Virus record (IMG/VR): IMGVR_UViG_2648501392_000016
Span: 1-6,622 of that record
Direction: 5' to 3' (one strand)
Source: a virus
Lineage: Duplodnaviria > Heunggongvirae > Uroviricota > Caudoviricetes
DNA length: 6,622 bases
A program made the translations under genes and the position numbers. Positions 1-6,622 of the stretch are shown piece by piece. The notes under the pieces were generated by a model. The model made no database searches. It was given only the letters and a program-made list of their open reading frames with translations, and was not told the DNA's origin. Numbering within the stretch: position 1 is the stretch's first letter; every line of letters starts with the position of its first letter.

Positions 1-24
1 GATTCGGTATCAGAAGAGGTGAGT

Positions 25-1095
25 ATGGCTAACGCCTGGCTCAGATTATGGCATGACATGCCAAATGACCCTAAGTGGCGAACAATTGCCAGGGTGTCAG
101 GGCAGCCAATTGCAACAGTGATGGCAGTGTATATCCACCTCCTGGTGAGCGCGTCACGAAATGTCACGCGAGGTCACATTGATGTCACGACAGAAGATTT
201 GGCAAGTGCGCTCGACGTGACAGAAGAGGTAATTGATTCAATTTTGCAGACGATGCAGGGGCGGGTACTTGATGGTGATTTAATCACTGGATGGGAAAAA
301 CGCCAGGTGCTGAAAGAGGACAACGGCAATATTTCGCAAACCGCAAAATCTCCTGCAGAGCGCAAGAGGGCGCAGCGAGAGAGGGAAAGAAAGCGGGAAC
401 AAAATGGCGATTGTCACGGCGCGTCACGAAATGTCACGCACATGTCACGACGAGTCACGACAGATAAAGATACAGATAAAGATACAGATAAAGATACAGA
501 TAAAGATACAGATCAAGAAGATCAAAACACTATGGTCCATGGCGTAAAAAACGCCACGAACCAGGCAGGGGATGTTCAGACCGTCAATCCTGGTCAGCCA
601 GCAGGCACGACACCGGAAGCCGATTCGGGCGCTGTGCAGCAGGTGATGACCGCAAGGCCGGAGCAATCACACCAACTGCAGCAGCCCGAAGCCGATTCCG
701 CCATTCAGCGGGAAGCCGATCGGGTAGTCCCGGAAAACACCGGGCAGTCTGTGGGACGAGTGGATTATCCGGATGTGTTCGAACAGGTCTGGCGGGAGTA
801 CCCGTTGCGTGCCGGAGCAAACCCGAAGAAATCCGCATTCAGTGCCTGGAAGGCCAGATTGCGCGAGGGGGTGCCACCAGAGACCATGCTGGATGGTGTG
901 AGGCGTTACGCGAGATACCTGGCGGCGACCGGGAAAGCGGGAACGGAATTTGTTCAGCGAGCGACGACGTTTTTTGGGCCGGACCGGAATTTTGAAAACC
1001 CCTGGTTGCTCCCGGTAAGCGGCACGAACAACCAGCGTTGCGTGAATCACATTTCTGAACCGGACACTGAAATACCGCCGGGATTCAGGGGGTGA
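25..1095 (+). CDS. Phage replication initiation protein, YdaU/DUF1376-like (O-like initiator); in-frame alternative GTG start at 19
   Basis: Long ORF; AGAGG(14-18)/GAGGT(16-20) RBS ahead of ATG 25. N-terminus (MANAWLRLWHDMPNDPKWR...) recalled as resembling Rac prophage YdaU-type proteins. Sits directly upstream of a DnaC-like loader gene, the usual O-P arrangement. Contains internal iterons and a low-complexity TDKD linker. Confidence 0.7.
   Translation: MANAWLRLWHDMPNDPKWRTIARVSGQPIATVMAVYIHLLVSASRNVTRGHIDVTTEDLASALDVTEEVIDSILQTMQGRVLDGDLITGWEKRQVLKEDNGNISQTAKSPAERKRAQRERERKREQNGDCHGASRNVTHMSRRVTTDKDTDKDTDKDTDKDTDQEDQNTMVHGVKNATNQAGDVQTVNPGQPAGTTPEADSGAVQQVMTARPEQSHQLQQPEADSAIQREADRVVPENTGQSVGRVDYPDVFEQVWREYPLRAGANPKKSAFSAWKARLREGVPPETMLDGVRRYARYLAATGKAGTEFVQRATTFFGPDRNFENPWLLPVSGTNNQRCVNHISEPDTEIPPGFRG
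153..189. repeat. Iteron-like direct repeat array A: GTCACG/GTCACA at 153, 163, 173, 184, with an inverted copy CGTGAC at 215-220
   Basis: Read directly from sequence: four hexamer copies spaced 10, 10 and 11 bp apart (one helical turn). The 19-mer gcgtcacgaaatgtcacgc at 151-169 recurs at 421-439. Confidence 0.5.
413..459. repeat. Iteron-like direct repeat array B: five GTCACG copies at 413, 423, 433, 444, 454; candidate replication-origin iterons
   Basis: Read directly from sequence: five perfect GTCACG hexamers at 10-11 bp spacing inside the initiator gene, immediately upstream of the tandem repeat. Analogous to lambda ori iterons lying within the O gene. Confidence 0.5.
460..519. repeat. 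12-bp tandem repeat (acagataaagat), four perfect copies plus one degenerate copy; encodes (TDKD)n in the initiator protein
   Basis: Read directly from sequence: perfect copies at 460-471, 472-483, 484-495, 496-507, degenerate copy 508-519. In frame with the CDS and translated as TDKDTDKDTDKDTDKDTDQED. Confidence 0.85.
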
Positions 1096-1101
1096 CGTGT
1101 C

Positions 1102-1848
1102 ATGAAAAACATTGCGGCAGTTGGGGTTCTTGAACGTATTCGCAGACTTGCACCACAGGGGGCGGTTCCACCGTACCGGACGGTGGAGGAGTGGCGGGAA
1201 TGGCAACTTGCTGAAGGACGAAAACGCAGCGAGGAGATTAACCGCCAGAATCGCCAGTTGCGGGTGGAAAAAATCCTGAATCGTTCGGGCATCCAGCCTC
1301 TGCACAGCAAATGCTCGTTTGCGAATTATCAGGTGCAGAATGACGGGCAAAAATACGCGCTGAGCCAGGCCAAATCCATAGCTGACGAACTGATGACCGG
1401 GTGCACGAATTTTGTGTTCAGCGGTAAAACCGGCACCGGGAAAAATCACCTTGCAGCGGCGATGGGTAACCGGCTGATGGCGAAGGGGCGCAGCGTGATT
1501 ATCGTCACCGTGTCTGATGTCATGAGCGTGTTGCATGACAGCTACGACAACGGCAAATCCGGGGAAAAATTTTTACAGGAGCTTTGCGGGGTTGATTTGC
1601 TGGTCCTGGATGAAATAGGCGTTCAGCGGGAGACGAAAAACGAGCAGGTGGTATTACACCAGATAATTGATCGCCGGACAGCATCACTGTGCAGTGTCGG
1701 GATGTTAACAAACCTGAATCATGCCGCAATGAGCACGCTTCTTGGTGAGAGGATTATGGACCGGATGACCATGAGCGGTGGTCGATGGGTGACGTTTAAC
1801 TGGGATAGCTGGCGTCCAAATGTCAGCAATATGAGGGTTGTGAAGTAA
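1102..1848 (+). CDS. DnaC/IstB-like AAA+ ATPase, phage replicative helicase loader (Rac YdaV-like)
   Basis: 248-aa ORF starting 7 nt after the upstream stop. Walker A-like FSGKTGTGKNHLAAA and Walker B LLVLDEIG are visible in the translation; size and position match DnaC-like phage replication proteins. Confidence 0.85.
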   Translation: MKNIAAVGVLERIRRLAPQGAVPPYRTVEEWREWQLAEGRKRSEEINRQNRQLRVEKILNRSGIQPLHSKCSFANYQVQNDGQKYALSQAKSIADELMTGCTNFVFSGKTGTGKNHLAAAMGNRLMAKGRSVIIVTVSDVMSVLHDSYDNGKSGEKFLQELCGVDLLVLDEIGVQRETKNEQVVLHQIIDRRTASLCSVGMLTNLNHAAMSTLLGERIMDRMTMSGGRWVTFNWDSWRPNVSNMRVVK

Positions 1849-1869
1849 TTTTGTCCGGAGGAAATTTTA

Positions 1870-2640
1870 ATGGAAACCGTATCTGACGCACTGAAAGCAC
1901 TGAAAAAAGCCTCTTCACATGTGGTGGCAGCTCGCCTTGGAATCAGTCGTGAAGAGGCTGTCAACGAGCTGTGGGAACTCAAAAGAAATGGCGTCGTTGA
2001 TAAAACTGGTCACACCTGGTTTCTGGCTGGCGAAGGTGAATCCCTGGTAACCGAAGAGCTGCCAGTAAAATCTGAAGCACAGGATATGCTGACCGGGGAG
2101 GTCGAACAAAAAGTTACCGCAGACATGATGATTGAGTTTATCGGTCAGGATGGGGCTAAAACGTGTGAGGAACTGGCGGGTAAGTTCGGCGTCAGTACTC
2201 GCAAGGTTGCTTCCACGCTGGCGGTGGTAACCGCAACGGGGCGGCTGGCACGCGTTAATCAGAGCGGTAAATTTTGTTACTGCATGCCGGGCGATAATTT
2301 ACCAGCAGAGTCGAAAGCCGCGCTGGTAACGGAAAATGATGGTAAGGCCTTTCCTCAGCCAGCAGGTGCTGCGTTACCAGTCCGGGAAGCCGCAACACAG
2401 GAAGAAATTAAAACAGAAACTGTGGCGGACATTGTGCAGCCGTTGCTATCGTTTACCGAAACGCAAGCAGATGAGCTGATTTTTCCGTCCCTGCGCAGGG
2501 CAAACCTGGCGCTGCGCAGGGCGAAAAGTGATGTTCAGAAGTGGGAGCGAATCTGCGCCGCGCTGCGGGAGCTGAACAAGCACCGGGATATTGTTCGACA
2601 GATTACTGATTCTTCCCGCCGTGTTGTATCGGAAAAGTGA
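1870..2640 (+). CDS. Phage hypothetical protein (256 aa); N-terminal region may be winged-helix-like
   Basis: GGAGG RBS at 1857-1861, 8 nt before ATG 1870. Uninterrupted ORF in the same orientation as the replication genes. No recognisable catalytic motif. Confidence 0.65.
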   Translation: METVSDALKALKKASSHVVAARLGISREEAVNELWELKRNGVVDKTGHTWFLAGEGESLVTEELPVKSEAQDMLTGEVEQKVTADMMIEFIGQDGAKTCEELAGKFGVSTRKVASTLAVVTATGRLARVNQSGKFCYCMPGDNLPAESKAALVTENDGKAFPQPAGAALPVREAATQEEIKTETVADIVQPLLSFTETQADELIFPSLRRANLALRRAKSDVQKWERICAALRELNKHRDIVRQITDSSRRVVSEK

Positions 2641-2655
2641 TTGCCGAAGGCGCTT

Positions 2656-3081
2656 ATGGCAAAAGTATTTACACAAGAAGAGCGAGAAAAAATTAAAGGG
2701 CAGGTTGTTGAGCTAGTACGCCGGAGTGGGCGCGAGACGTTACGGCAACTGGAAGCCAAGACAGGTGCGACAAGATATCTGATGAGCGTTCTTGCCAGAG
2801 AGCTGGTTGCCAGTGGTGATGTATATCACTCTGGCTATGGGTTGTTCCCGTCAGAACAGGCGCGTAAGGACTGGCAAAACGCCCGCAAAAAACTCTCGAG
2901 GGCAAAGGTGAAGAAACCTGTTGTGGTTGATCCGGGCCTTATCTGGACATTACCCGACGGAGAAATACACCGCTACGACAGGCGTATGAACATAATCTGT
3001 CGCGAGTGCCGGAAGAGCGAAGCTATGCAGCGTGTACTGGCATTTTATCAAGGAAATGTTAGATATTTTAGACGTTACTAG
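2656..3081 (+). CDS. Phage hypothetical protein (about 141 aa); track ORF begins at TTG 2641 but ATG 2656 with a GAAGG RBS is preferred
   Basis: ORF directly follows the upstream stop at 2640; GAAGG at 2645-2649 precedes ATG 2656. Basic C-terminus containing a CxxC pair (CRECRK). Does not match lambda NinB as I recall it. Confidence 0.6.
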   Translation: MAKVFTQEEREKIKGQVVELVRRSGRETLRQLEAKTGATRYLMSVLARELVASGDVYHSGYGLFPSEQARKDWQNARKKLSRAKVKKPVVVDPGLIWTLPDGEIHRYDRRMNIICRECRKSEAMQRVLAFYQGNVRYFRRY

Positions 3082-3108
3082 ATTAAAGAGCATTAGTTCA
3101 GATGTGAA

Positions 3109-3137
3109 TTGACATTTTCATGGCGCAGGGTAGAGCC
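3109..3137 (+). promoter_or_regulatory. Candidate sigma70 promoter for the cargo island (perfect -35 TTGACA, weak -10); alternative extended -10 TGcTACACT at 3213-3221
   Basis: TTGACA at 3109-3114 with TAGAGC 16 bp downstream (3 of 6 matches to TATAAT). Lies in the 153-bp gap between the phage genes and the QueH-like gene. Sequence-only guess. Confidence 0.2.
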
Positions 3138-3234
3138 AGCGTGGTTGTCCGCTTTGCGTCAAAACCAGAGATTACCAGATTTAGACATATATTCCCGATA
3201 GCCCTGCTCTGATGCTACACTCTGTGCTATTTTC

Positions 3235-3921
3235 ATGACCCCAATAAAAATATTTATGACTATTGCTGATTTCAAACGGCCTAAATTGGAGCTTCCAAAC
3301 GGGGCAAACAAACTACTACTGCACTCTTGCTGTGCTCCATGTTCCGGTGAAGTGATGGAGGCGCTTCAGGCCTCGGGAATCGACTACACCATCTTTTTCT
3401 ACAACCCGAACATTCATCCTCAGAAAGAGTATTTAATTCGTAAGGATGAAAATATTCGCTTTGCTGAACAACACGGCGTGCCGTTTATCGATGCTGATTA
3501 CGACACCGACAACTGGTTTGAACGTGCCAAAGGAATGGAATGGGAGCCTGAGAGGGGGATCCGTTGTACCATGTGTTTTGACATGCGTTTTGAGCGGACA
3601 GCGTTGTACGCTGCTGAAAATGGTTTCAGTGTGATCAGTAGTTCACTGGGCATTTCACGCTGGAAAAATATGCAGCAGGTTAACGAGTGTGGGCGGCGAG
3701 CTGTTGCGCATTATCCGGGTATGGTGTACTGGGATTATAACTGGCGCAAGCAGGGCGGCTCGTCCCGTATGATTGAAATCAGCAAGCGCGAAAAATTCTA
3801 TCAGCAGGAATATTGTGGCTGTGTGTATTCTCTGCGCGATACCAATCTACACCGCAAATCTCAGGGACGCCCTCTTATCAAAATTGGCCAACTCCACTAC
3901 GGAAAAGAAGAGAAGGAGTGA
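3235..3921 (+). CDS. QueH-family (DUF208) epoxyqueuosine-reductase-like Fe-S protein; alternative start ATG 3256
   Basis: The translation carries the [11 protein letters not shown] and FYNPNIHP motifs that I recall as hallmarks of DUF208/QueH, plus further Cys pairs (CTMC, CGC) consistent with metal-cluster ligation. No strong SD before either candidate ATG. Confidence 0.65.
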
Positions 3922-3991
3922 TTTTATGGATCACCTTTCTGATTGATTTCATATTGGCGAGGTGACGTGAGTTAAGTAGAATTGCTGCGGG

Positions 3992-4016
3992 TGCCTGAGG
4001 CTGTCTGCCTCAGGCA
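3992..4016. other. Perfect 9-bp inverted repeat (TGCCTGAGG, 7-nt loop, CCTCAGGCA) between the QueH-like and methyltransferase genes
   Basis: Read directly from sequence. No T-tract follows (downstream is gaacaccaaaagg), so it is not a canonical intrinsic terminator; it could be a protein-binding site or an RNA stem-loop. Confidence 0.4.
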
Positions 4017-4099
4017 TGAACACCAAAAGGCAGATAGAGAAAGCCCCAGTTAACATTACGCGTCCTGTAAGACGCTCAACATTAATCTGAGGCATATGG

Positions 4100-5224
4100 A
4101 TGCGGATGAAAGAATTAAATAAATTCAGAGTGATAGACCTCTTTTGTGGGGCAGGTGGATTATCTTATGGTTTTCTTCATGGAGAGATGTCTGACTACTT
4201 TGAAAGTATCCTTGCTATTGATAATAATGCTGCAGCTATAAATACCTACAATGCCAATTTTGGTTTGCATGGAGTTCAGGCAAATATTGAGGAGTGGGCA
4301 TCCAGCAATACTGTTCCTGAGGCTGATGTGGTCATAGGTGGCCCCCCGTGTCAGGGATTCAGTTTATTGAATAAGAATCGTTATGGTGATCACCGAAGAG
4401 CATTGTGGGAGCCTTATATGGATGTCATTGAGCGTTCAAGGGCTTGTATGTTCGTCATGGAAAATGTCCCCGGATTGCTGATAAGCGATGAGTTTGCGGA
4501 CATTACGTTTAGAGCGAAATCCATGGGCTTTATTCTGCTTAATCCAATGGTGTTGAATACTGCTGACTATGGAGTACCTCAGACAAGAAAACGAACGATA
4601 GCAATCGGTATCAAACGAGAACTCTTCGATGTGCATAGTATTCCGGCGTTCCCGCCAGCACCAACGCATCGTTCCCCTGATAAGGATGTCGCTTTGCCTG
4701 AATGGGTCTGTACGCGTGATGCAATTGGTGACTTACCTGCTCCTGTTGGAACTGATATTCGTAATGAACTTCCTCCGCTGAACTTACATTTTGGGCGTAA
4801 TCCCACACCTGTTTCTCTGGAGCGATATAAAGCGGTTCCACCAGGAGGTAACCGTTTCGATTTACAGAAAAAAAGACCTGATATAACCCCGGCGTGCTGG
4901 CTAAAAAAGAAATCTGGAGGGACCGATTTGTTTGGACGTCTGTGGTGGGACAAACCTTCAGTAACGATTCGTACTGAGTTTTTCAAACCGGAGAAAGGGC
5001 GATATTTACATCCGGAAGAGGATCGGCCAATAACTCATCGTGAGGCAGCGAGATTAATGTCTTTTCCTGATAATTTCATTTTTACCGGTTCAAAAACTGA
5101 GATTGCAAAGCAGATCGGGAATGCTGTTCCACCGCTATTTGCGGCAAAAATCGCACAATATGTGTATGGAGTTTTGCAGGGACGGTATAAGAATAACATC
5201 AGTAAGAATAGTCAAGCAGCCTGA
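4100..5224 (+). CDS. DNA (cytosine-5)-methyltransferase, type II R-M modification subunit
   Basis: Canonical m5C-MTase motifs in the translation: motif I DLFCGAGGLSYGF, motif IV GGPPCQGFS, motif VI ENVPGL, motif VIII QTRKR, motif X GNAVPP. GAGG RBS at 4088-4091. Confidence 0.9.
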   Translation: MRMKELNKFRVIDLFCGAGGLSYGFLHGEMSDYFESILAIDNNAAAINTYNANFGLHGVQANIEEWASSNTVPEADVVIGGPPCQGFSLLNKNRYGDHRRALWEPYMDVIERSRACMFVMENVPGLLISDEFADITFRAKSMGFILLNPMVLNTADYGVPQTRKRTIAIGIKRELFDVHSIPAFPPAPTHRSPDKDVALPEWVCTRDAIGDLPAPVGTDIRNELPPLNLHFGRNPTPVSLERYKAVPPGGNRFDLQKKRPDITPACWLKKKSGGTDLFGRLWWDKPSVTIRTEFFKPEKGRYLHPEEDRPITHREAARLMSFPDNFIFTGSKTEIAKQIGNAVPPLFAAKIAQYVYGVLQGRYKNNISKNSQAA

Positions 5225-5237
5225 AGGAAATCCAGAA

Positions 5238-6116
5238 ATGAATGGAGATTTGGTTGACAGCATAGTTGGTTTTGCTGAAGCCAGAAAGGAGTTTCATGCC
5301 CAATTGTTACTGAATACGCTCACAATTAATACTGCCGGAGTTGTTAGTAACGCAGATAGCAGTAACAAAAACAGTAAAGCTATAGCAAGAGAAATTGCTC
5401 GCTTCTTGCAGGCTGAAACGATTGGTGAACGTGTTGCAGGGCAAACATCTGGTAATCAGTTTGAGAGTATCTGCGCAGAGTTTATAGAAAAAACCTTTTT
5501 TAAACTCAGCCACTTACGCCCTGGAAAATGGAATGTACATCAGGTTTCTGGTAGAAACAGATTAGAGATAGCTAAATATGAACAATATGCCCATCTTATA
5601 GCATTGGATAGTGCTGCAAAAAGTAATCCTCAGCTAGCTGCTGCACTGGGGAGTGATTATACGATTTCACCAGATATTATTGTTGAAAGAGAACCTGAAT
5701 GTGATCAAGTTATCAACAGTCCTGAATTACTGGTGGATGATTCTGTTACCCGCATGTCAGCTCTCAGGAGTTCGAATGGTGGGAAACCAATATTACACGC
5801 AAGTATTTCCTGCAAATGGACAATAAGAAGCGACCGGGCCCAGAATGCTCGTTCTGAGGCATTAAATCTTATTCGCAACCGTAAGGGAAATCTCCCTCAT
5901 GTAATGGTTGTTACTGCTGAGCCTACTCCAAGTCGTCTGGCGTCTATTGCTCTTGGTACTGGTGATATAGATTGCGTGTATCATTTTGCGCTTTATGAAC
6001 TTATATCAGCAGTTGAAATACTGGGGCTCAGCGATGCAGCTGACATGCTTTCCGTGATGGTTAATGGTAAAAGATTAAAGGATATTTCTGATCTTCCCTT
6101 GGATCTTGCAGTCTGA
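5238..6116 (+). CDS. Type II restriction endonuclease, NgoMIV/Cfr10I/Bse634I family (predicted CCGG-core site, possibly GCCGGC); start ATG 5238 preferred over track start 5103
   Basis: AGGA RBS at 5225-5228, 9 nt before ATG 5238, which lies 13 nt after the MTase stop. The translation has PD at 145-146, SCK at 191-193 and RSDR at 197-200. Numbered from ATG 5238, E76, D146, K193, R197, D199, R200, E207 and R233 all sit at a constant +6 offset from the NgoMIV residues E70, D140, K187, R191, D193, R194, E201 and R227 as I recall them from the literature. Confidence 0.75.
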   Translation: MNGDLVDSIVGFAEARKEFHAQLLLNTLTINTAGVVSNADSSNKNSKAIAREIARFLQAETIGERVAGQTSGNQFESICAEFIEKTFFKLSHLRPGKWNVHQVSGRNRLEIAKYEQYAHLIALDSAAKSNPQLAAALGSDYTISPDIIVEREPECDQVINSPELLVDDSVTRMSALRSSNGGKPILHASISCKWTIRSDRAQNARSEALNLIRNRKGNLPHVMVVTAEPTPSRLASIALGTGDIDCVYHFALYELISAVEILGLSDAADMLSVMVNGKRLKDISDLPLDLAV

Positions 6117-6188
6117 CATCTCTACGTAAATAGAGTCTGTCATATTTTAACTGTGATGGCACGTCATTGACTTCAGTACATTTTTACT

Positions 6189-6214
6189 AACCCGCTTCGC
6201 GGGTTTTGTTTTTT
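6189..6214 (+). terminator. Rho-independent terminator closing the R-M operon
   Basis: 7-bp GC-rich stem AACCCGC/GCGGGTT with a 3-nt loop, followed by the T-tract TTTTGTTTTTT; 73 bp downstream of the endonuclease stop. Confidence 0.7.
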
Positions 6215-6286
6215 CCTGGCATTCTGGTTTACAATCCACACGCCAGCCTGAACAACTGGCACCTGCTGCGCCAGCAGAGACAACCG

Positions 6287-6532
6287 ATGGCGCACAATAC
6301 CAAACACCACAATTCTGATGCCGACCCTGCCAGCAGACACGGACGGCGCTCTCACGCATTCAAATATGACTGGTACCAGCATGACCAATGCACTGAAGAA
6401 CAGGCCGAGTGGCTGATTCAGAATTACCGCAGACGTGGATACCAGTTTCAGAAAGGCCTCAGTCCTGACTTCCGACGCTGGATAATTTCCGTCAGGCTCC
6501 CTTATTCCGAACGCCCGCCGCGTCCGTCCTGA
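6287..6532 (+). pseudogene. Hypothetical ORF apparently truncated by the IS insertion (its stop codon is supplied by the IS terminus TGA)
   Basis: The open frame (from 6206; first ATG with a weak RBS at 6287) runs without a stop until the TGA at 6530-6532, which is the first three bases of the IS inverted repeat. The product is not recognised and coding status is uncertain. Confidence 0.3.
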
Positions 6533-6622
6533 ACCGCCCCGGGAATCCTGGAGACTAAACTTCCTGAGAAAGAGGTAAACAGGATGACTAAAAATACTCG
6601 TTTTTCCCCTGAAGTCCGTCAA
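6530..6622 (+). mobile_element. IS3-family insertion sequence (IS629/IS1203-like), left end; continues beyond the window
   Basis: Terminal sequence TGAACCGCCCCGGG... and an OrfA N-terminus MTKNTRFSPEVRQ recalled as the IS629/IS1203 group; 5'-TG terminus is typical of the IS3 family. Confidence 0.7.
6584..6622 (+). CDS. IS3-family transposase OrfA (partial, N-terminal 13 codons in window)
   Basis: GAGG RBS at 6572-6575 then ATG 6584; translation MTKNTRFSPEVRQ matches the remembered OrfA start of IS629-like elements. Truncated by the window edge. Confidence 0.7.
   Translation, partial: MTKNTRFSPEVRQ

Follow-up and report, generated by a model that had tools for sequence, protein, structure and literature searches.

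The 6,622-nucleotide stretch of a caudoviricete genome examined here (IMG/VR record IMGVR_UViG_2648501392_000016, positions 1 to 6,622; hereafter the window) carries, between positions 3082 and 6286, genes coding for QueH, a C5 cytosine DNA methyltransferase (M), and an NgoMIV-family type II restriction endonuclease (R). We found that this segment consists of two independently distributed cassettes with 170 bp of widely conserved backbone between them, and that the 170 bp are the relic of a hokD locus, which no longer constitutes a toxin-antitoxin locus. The restriction-modification (R-M) pair has replaced the mok/hok core of that locus; the hok promoter-like site, the leader, the mok ribosome-binding site, and the terminator have been kept, and the block usually found upstream of the R-M pair is missing. 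We consider it quite probable that the segment as a whole is an accessory (moron/defence) region of a Rac/Qin-type lambdoid E. coli prophage, located in the nin-equivalent interval and composed of two slots, one holding a captured QueH gene and the other a foreign R-M pair within a hok locus. The features that carry this finding are the following.

About 3175–3923, + strand: QueH module with a single gene (coding sequence 3256–3921, alternative ATG at 3235).
3924–4093, + strand: relic of the hokD type I toxin-antitoxin locus, found directly upstream of hokD in relatives L002–L005.
3954–3982, + strand: promoter-like site TTGGCG-17-TAGAAT, from a promoter scan.
From about 3989, + strand: putative hok mRNA leader, assigned by homology to hok loci.
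4089–4092, + strand: putative mok Shine-Dalgarno (SD) sequence GAGG, likewise assigned by homology to hok loci.
4094–6187, + strand: R-M cassette of 2094 bp, in the place of a 287-bp mok/hok core.
4100–5224, + strand: C5 cytosine DNA methyltransferase gene (PF00145, 4e-54; PADLOC MTase_II, 9e-88).
5238–6116, + strand: NgoMIV-family type II restriction endonuclease gene (PF09015, 6e-127, 423 bits, 275/275 profile positions).
6117–6187, + strand: 71-bp 3' tail of the cassette, lying after the endonuclease gene and before the hok terminator.
6189–6215, + strand: intrinsic terminator belonging to the hok locus and retained after the R-M cassette, comprising a hairpin (6189–6205) and a T-run.

Junctions and distribution of the cassettes

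Related prophages and phages were compared with the window by pairwise BLAST, and frequencies were obtained by counting matches across 5426 complete E. coli genomes. The relatives designated by number are the prophage of E. coli E110019 (L001), phage vB_EcoS-813R8 (L002), E. coli APEC E19035 (L003), E. coli strains A11 (L005) and A34 (L094), and Logan contig DRR526053_9944 (L086), besides a few others named by number only. Homology broke at 4093/4094 in all five relatives and was regained at 6188 in L002 and at 6190 in L003. The right edge of the QueH module lay at 3923, and its left edge fell between 3060 and 3174 depending on the relative; homology to the relatives without the cargo (L002, L004, and L005) ended between 3057 and 3174. 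A 35-bp sequence (3140–3174) is common to L004, which is QueH-positive with another upstream gene, and to the QueH-negative L005: the L005 match ends at 3174, and the L004 match begins at 3140. At the left edge of the QueH slot, this sequence may have served as a linker for recombination.

The pieces between these junctions differ in frequency. The hokD relic (3924–4093) had a match in 3947 of the 5426 genomes and the backbone from 6188 onward in 2576, whereas QueH-bearing matches (3082–4093, at least 80% coverage) were found in 942 and R-M-bearing matches (4094–6290, at least 80% coverage) in 60. All 60 R-M matches include the junction with the hok leader; 57 have QueH, and the three without it have other upstream genes, with homology starting at 3969–3977. 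In one of these three, strain A34, homology stops just past the terminator, at 6207. Identity of the R-M cassette is 97–100% across the 60 genomes (99.9–100% in 53), which include O157:H7, O111, O103, and O39 as well as unrelated strains. This distribution agrees with one replacement event, after which recombination in the flanking backbone spread the leader/R-M/terminator unit.

The first-pass annotation, made from the sequence of the window, had read 3082–6286 as one horizontally acquired cargo island. Its three gene calls (QueH-like, methyltransferase, and endonuclease) were right, and acquisition as accessory cargo is borne out, since neither cassette is universal at this position and relatives have other genes there. 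The single island is not: aligned with related prophages, which that annotation had proposed as a check and which yielded the junctions at 3923, 4093/4094, and 6188, the segment separates into the QueH module, the hokD relic, the R-M cassette, and the hok terminator. The decapitated hokD locus that intervenes and carries the R-M cassette had been overlooked. We also considered a transposon, an insertion sequence (IS)-borne unit, or an integron-type cassette. No direct or inverted repeats were found around the 3175/3923 or the 4094/6187 junctions, and such an origin was therefore rejected for both cassettes; the sole IS in the window, from 6530 on, is unrelated.

Replacement of the mok/hok core

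The intact counterpart of the relic is best seen in phage vB_EcoS-813R8 (L002), the cleanest intact reference, which has no QueH. Only 287 bp separate the equivalents of 4093 and 6188 in this phage. Read directly, these 287 bp contain the mok start 8 nt past the GAGG, the hok open reading frame (ORF), and the fbi element, and the terminator hairpin follows directly. The 3' element CCTCAACGCACCCGC of L002 is complementary to the 5' end of the mRNA, GCGGGTGCTTGAGG, which we take to be the fbi-tac pairing known from hok/sok of plasmid R1. In L003, L004, and L005, the annotated hokD lies about 65 bp beyond the 170-bp equivalent of 3924–4093. The hairpin at 6189–6205, with the T-run after it, is the sole terminator-like site in 2900–6622 of the window, and the same hairpin follows hokD in L002 (6564–6581). 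Nucleotide identity between the window and the intact hokD loci is 92–95% over the hok promoter, leader, mok SD, and terminator. The mok and hok ORFs and the fbi element are absent from the window, where the R-M cassette stands in place of the 287 bp of L002.

With the Rfam sok model (RF01794), the window scored 61 bits (gathering score, 59) with only model positions 1–88 well aligned, and intact loci scored 108–112 bits. The Sok promoter would also have lain in the replaced stretch. By eye, a weak candidate (TTGCCT-17-TAACCT) can be read on the minus strand of L002; at its threshold, the promoter scan called no Sok promoter in this intact locus, and it found no minus-strand promoter-like site in 4094–4200 of the window. 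An Rfam hit to RyhB at 6155–6212 (24 bits against a gathering score of 55, E = 0.47) was dismissed as a chance match driven by the terminator hairpin.

Features and relatives of the R-M pair

Both proteins are identified as type II R-M components by PADLOC, and their genes lie on the same strand with a gap of 13 bp. The methyltransferase would start at ATG 4100, 7 nt past the mok GAGG (RefSeq calls ATG 4106), and it has motifs I (FCGAGG), IV (PPCQGFS), VI (ENV), VIII (QTRKR), and X (GNAVP). Deibert and co-workers reportedly described, in 2000, the roles of D34 and R227 of NgoMIV in contacting the outer G:C pair. Alignment of the endonuclease with NgoMIV (1FIU) gave 66% identity across 281 residues (E = 1e-118) and showed conservation of D34, E70 (the Glu upstream of the catalytic motif), D140 (in PDIIV), K187, R191-S-D-R194, E201, and R227; read by eye, the alignment also places Q63 in a conserved GQTSGN. 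In NgoMIV, a PD-X46-53-K-X13-E motif, an RXDR motif that reads the CCGG core, a role of Q63 in contacting the outer G:C pair, and strict G/CCGGC specificity have been described (PMC3413111). Given the conservation of these motifs and residues, the endonuclease is predicted to cut G/CCGGC.

The pair belongs to a promiscuous, highly conserved family, which shows 60–89% amino acid identity across many phyla among the matches listed. The closest DNA relatives are L086, an unassigned lambdoid contig (78.7%, window 4095–6116), and chromosomal copies in Pantoea and Cronobacter (about 72%); no donor above 79% nucleotide identity was found among the matches listed, and a contig-wide donor scan returned, among the matches listed, only endonucleases of 59–78% identity from distant phyla. 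In L086, cI, cro, cII, lambda-type O and P, and one ORF are followed by the M-R pair (4297–6307; R at 89% amino acid identity) with no hok leader. The presence of a homologous pair in this different lambdoid phage indicates that the family has entered the lambdoid post-replication region at least twice. The pair is below whole-locus G+C in both Pantoea and Cronobacter, but in Cronobacter it is not below its immediate left flank. Among 50,697 phage records, an NgoMIV-family enzyme occurred in only one, a fragmentary metagenomic record with 56% identity.

A conserved block, TATGGG.TTT.TACAGC.T.A.A.ATATG.TAAATT, lies about 55–95 bp before the methyltransferase gene in the lambdoid phage, Pantoea, and Cronobacter (L086, 4215–4270; L087, 4795–4850; L090, 4795–4850), three contexts that are otherwise unrelated. 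This R-M family probably has its native promoter or operator in the block, which the window lacks: there the cassette begins only 6–12 nt before the start codon of M. At the other end, the 71-bp tail matches neither the hok-locus relatives nor the R-M homologues L086–L092. A short palindrome, CTCTACGTAAATAGAG, was noted in this tail.

QueH and base composition

QueH matches PF02677 over 174/175 profile positions (9.6e-66, 221.6 bits). It aligns with QueH of T. maritima (7LC5; E = 8e-22), including the CCAPC-like, C-x2-C (RC..C), and YCGC motifs, and is 79–86% identical to proteins named QueH by NCBI in Erwinia, Gibbsiella, Photorhabdus, Providencia, and Proteus. Several of the latter sit on Mb-scale contigs and were therefore taken as chromosomal. 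The sequenced phage HannyBb has a QueH with 96.8% amino acid identity, annotated there as hypothetical. QueG needs cobalamin, which E. coli does not synthesize de novo. The last step of queuosine synthesis can be carried out by either of two enzymes, QueH or QueG (PMC9508795). Our literature search returned nothing specific on prophage QueH or on DUF208 in phages.

The impression that 3082–6286 is more A+T-rich than the replication genes upstream proved correct: G+C content is 52.5% in 1–3081, 44.3% in 3082–6286, and 52.4% in 6287–6622 (chi-square p = 7.5e-11), and a two-breakpoint maximum-likelihood fit placed the breaks at about 3040 and 6240. Of the bounds given in the first-pass annotation, the shift thus stands, whereas the right edge does not, since the cargo ends at 6187 and 6286 is simply the base before the ATG of the next gene. 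Codon usage, which that annotation had suggested examining together with sliding-window G+C, was not uniform either. G+C at third codon positions (GC3) is 0.547 in the four upstream genes; QueH, at 0.518, does not differ from them (Fisher p = 0.46), whereas the methyltransferase (0.365, p = 2e-9) and the endonuclease (0.300, p = 6e-14) do. The 24.5-kb L001 prophage stretch has 19 genes of at least 300 bp (mean GC3 0.495, sd 0.081), and no other gene among them has a value as low as these two. The R-M cassette (4094–6187) has 42.7% G+C. Because the shift is uneven, with low GC3 in the R-M genes and not in QueH, the drop is borne by the R-M cassette and A+T-rich intergenic DNA. The composition of QueH, which had been counted in the shifted island, is ordinary.

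Prophage context and the two slots

Positions 1–6529 of the window are 99.9% identical to the prophage of E. coli E110019. The left arm of this prophage is of the Qin/Rac type, with an exonuclease gene, dicB, ydfABC, a repressor-like gene, and YdaT, and the order onward is O-like, DnaC-like, DUF1627, DUF977, QueH, the C5 methyltransferase, the NgoMIV-family endonuclease, and a 90-amino-acid gene, after which come DUF968, RusA, DUF1133, and lysis genes. Related prophages have, next to RusA on its downstream side, a gene annotated as antiterminator Q. With replication genes on one side and DUF968-RusA-DUF1133 on the other, the segment does occupy, as had been proposed, the position at which lambdoid phages carry nin-region genes. 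The flanking features are as follows.

2656–3081, + strand: DUF977 (LygF-like) gene, the last of the conserved left flank (PF06163, 9e-28; RefSeq annotation in L001).
3082–3174, + strand: A+T-rich intergenic backbone containing the 35-bp candidate linker 3140–3174.
6287–6529, + strand: first 81 codons of the 90-amino-acid backbone gene, right flank (annotated at 15287–15559 in L001, or 6287–6559 in window numbering).
6530–6622, + strand: left end of an IS3-family insertion sequence outside the cargo, 100% identical to the ends of both IS3-family copies in L001.

The 146-amino-acid ORF of the first-pass annotation is the DUF977 gene with a TTG start at 2641. The 90-amino-acid gene, which had no Pfam or PADLOC match, is broken at 6530 by the IS3-family element, and for this reason every genome match stops at 6529. 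Two tandem arrays were seen within 412–518 of the O-like gene: one (412–462) has about five copies of a 10–11-bp unit resembling TGTCACGACA and looks like origin iterons, and the other (460–518) has 4.9 copies of a 12-bp unit and encodes a DKDT protein repeat. A second, unrelated DNA methyltransferase gene lies downstream of the DUF1133 gene in the same prophage (L001, 18115–19191).

Conserved flanks with different cargo in relatives were found on both sides of the hokD locus. The left slot contains small ORFs in L002, AbiH and a 463-amino-acid ORF in L005 (2269–4658), a truncated methyltransferase gene and QueH in L004, and a pair annotated as 'sce7726 family' and 'beta family' in strain A34 (L094, 2990–4625). 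The left-slot cargo of L005 and L094 is on, or partly on, the opposite strand. The right slot contains hokD alone in L002, hokD and rem in L004, hokD and an RmrTA-like pair in L003, and the R-M pair without hok in the window. The RmrTA-like pair of L003 (6399–8155; PADLOC RmrT 7.5e-10, RmrA 5.5e-102) is downstream of an intact hokD, and a second copy of the hok-like terminator was noted after it. A search with a synthetic QueH-hokD-backbone sequence found QueH and hokD together in 608 genomes. In the window, the promoter-like and terminator-like sites that frame the R-M pair belong to hok, and the R-M pair is atypical in composition, whereas QueH is not. There are two independently exchangeable slots around the hokD locus, which is the pattern of a phage accessory/defence hotspot.

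Proposed mechanism

We propose that queH was captured from the genome of another member of the Enterobacterales and that its product may give the lysogen a way of reducing epoxyqueuosine in tRNA to queuosine that dispenses with the cobalamin needed by its own QueG. M and R would be co-transcribed from the hok promoter, independently of prophage repression, and M would be translated from the mok SD. The pair would then methylate host and prophage DNA at GCCGGC and cleave unmethylated incoming DNA, and could thereby protect the lysogen from other phages and penalize loss of the prophage, as a substitute addiction module for hok/sok. Homologous recombination in the flanking backbone would then have carried the unit of hok leader, R-M pair, and terminator into lambdoid prophages of different serotypes.

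Several points weigh against this proposal. The promoter and SD assignments depend on consensus matches and on homology to hok loci, and we infer from sequence both the expression of the R-M pair from the hok signals, with the ensuing methylation and restriction, and the benefit of a prophage QueH to a host equipped with QueG. No promoter-like site turned up before QueH in the promoter scan. Folding of the chimeric leader suggests structure (z = -3.15), and at minimum free energy part of the region around the SD is paired, which makes the efficiency of translation uncertain. No controller protein and no other obvious means of delaying R relative to M were found. GCCGGC occurs nowhere in the window and five times in the 24.5-kb prophage stretch (expected, 5–8), and with counts this near expectation there is no signal of site avoidance either way. 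Lastly, the best matches to an exact 'empty-site' ancestor, QueH-hokD-backbone, have about 670 bp extra after hokD.

Alternative explanations

One alternative, that QueH, M, and R form one contiguous island brought in by a single horizontal transfer, draws on the adjacency and common orientation of the three genes, the presence of QueH directly upstream in 57 of the 60 R-M genomes, and the 44.3% G+C of the whole stretch. However, QueH occurs without the R-M pair in about 880 genomes and the R-M pair without QueH in three, and the 170 bp between them belong to hokD and are conserved in 3947. GC3 is host-like for QueH (0.518) and only 0.30–0.365 for the R-M genes, and the closest relatives differ as well: those of QueH are in other Enterobacterales, whereas the R-M pair belongs to a promiscuous family that lies below locus G+C where this was checked. 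A single transfer is thus extremely improbable. It could also be argued that the G+C drop is normal lambdoid mosaic heterogeneity and says nothing of recent acquisition, given that other prophage genes are A+T-rich (GC3 of dicB, 0.27; a regulator, 0.33; iraM, 0.39; a cI-like gene, 0.40) and QueH itself is not deviant. Yet M and R have the lowest GC3 of the genes of at least 300 bp in the prophage stretch, the R-M pair is present in 1.1% of genomes with near-identical sequence across several serotypes, and the junctions are sharp to the base against several relatives; we regard plain mosaicism as very unlikely.

With the two-cassette structure retained, the R-M pair might be decaying, with the endonuclease inactive or silent beside an orphan methyltransferase, or with neither gene expressed after loss of the native promoter. 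Consistent with this, the upstream block of the homologues is missing and the SD region is partly paired in the predicted fold. On the other hand, neither ORF is shortened, the catalytic and recognition residues are intact, as are the methyltransferase motifs, 53 of the 60 genomes show 99.9–100% identity, every match listed has both genes annotated as intact, and the pair is preceded by a promoter-like site and an ideally spaced SD and followed by a terminator, so that we judge decay unlikely. For QueH, a role in serving the phage may be envisaged: 7-deazaguanine DNA modification or anti-restriction, or tuning of tRNA for phage translation or against tRNA-targeting defences. Its occurrence in phage HannyBb and, at the same prophage position, in 17% of the E. 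coli genomes suggests selection on the phage. Nevertheless, no tgt/dpdA, queC, queD, queE, or folE is annotated in the 24.5-kb prophage stretch, and the 79–86% identity to Enterobacterales QueH, together with the intact Cys motifs, points to an ordinary tRNA epoxyqueuosine reductase; such a role is quite improbable. A further idea is that the retained hok leader is a working regulatory platform on which Sok RNAs of sibling prophages pair with the R-M leader and throttle M and R. About 54 nt of the inferred Sok target (4040–4093) are still in the window, and the R-M-positive O157:H7 genomes have 5–7 matching places, suggesting that sibling hokD-type loci exist. We rate this as a long shot; if it were true, the strength of restriction or post-segregational killing would be tied to other prophages, and, in more general terms, hok loci would give the defence cassettes of lambdoid phages a place to land and be expressed.

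Significance

This finding leaves the established concepts of prophage-borne R-M systems, morons, and phage defence hotspots unchanged, and RefSeq already names the three genes. The distinctive detail is the hok-to-R-M swap with capture of the hok expression signals. Our literature search turned up no account of this arrangement, of hokD in connection with restriction-modification, or of an NgoMIV-type system in an E. coli prophage. The window would offer a base-precise example of the exchange of accessory/defence genes in temperate phages, in which one addiction/exclusion module (hok/sok) was swapped for another (R-M). The two variable slots, which lie next to each other in a prophage family very common in E. 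coli, could be mined for defence systems. The R-M pair occurs in the Shiga-toxin-associated serotypes O157:H7, O111, and O103 and could there influence susceptibility to phages, uptake of DNA, and typing based on methylation. The prophage QueH, carried by about one-sixth of the complete E. coli genomes, is uncharacterized and possibly a B12-sparing, phage-carried tRNA-modification gene.

Comparison with known systems

The R-M pair most resembles the NgoMIV system of Neisseria gonorrhoeae (type IIF, G/CCGGC; PDB 1FIU, 4ABT), with which it shares the catalytic PD-X46-K-X13-E arrangement, RSDR, the residues for outer G:C contacts, and an adjacent C5 methyltransferase. Unlike NgoMIV, it resides in an E. 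coli lambdoid prophage and not in a neisserial chromosome, and it is fused to a hok promoter/leader; its activity and specificity are predicted. With hokD of lambdoid prophages and hok/sok of plasmid R1, the window shares the promoter, a 5' leader that includes the first hairpin, and the mok SD, as well as the terminator, and the role we propose for the R-M pair (stabilization of the element and phage exclusion) is analogous to that of hok/sok. In contrast to hok/sok, it lacks mok, hok, fbi, and presumably the Sok promoter, and has a protein-based R-M pair instead.

Likewise, QueH has the full-length PF02677 domain and the cysteine motifs of QueH (DUF208) from T. maritima, Erwinia, Providencia, and Photorhabdus; unlike those, it is prophage-encoded in a species whose own enzyme is QueG, and would therefore be a redundant copy with an alternative cofactor. 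Morons and defence hotspots of temperate phages include the variable defence loci of P2/P4 and the nin accessory genes of lambda. The window has in common with them conserved flanks and interchangeable, often A+T-rich cargo, and differs from them in that two adjacent slots surround a hok locus and one of the cargoes, which in morons come with a promoter and terminator of their own, has taken over the expression signals of that locus.

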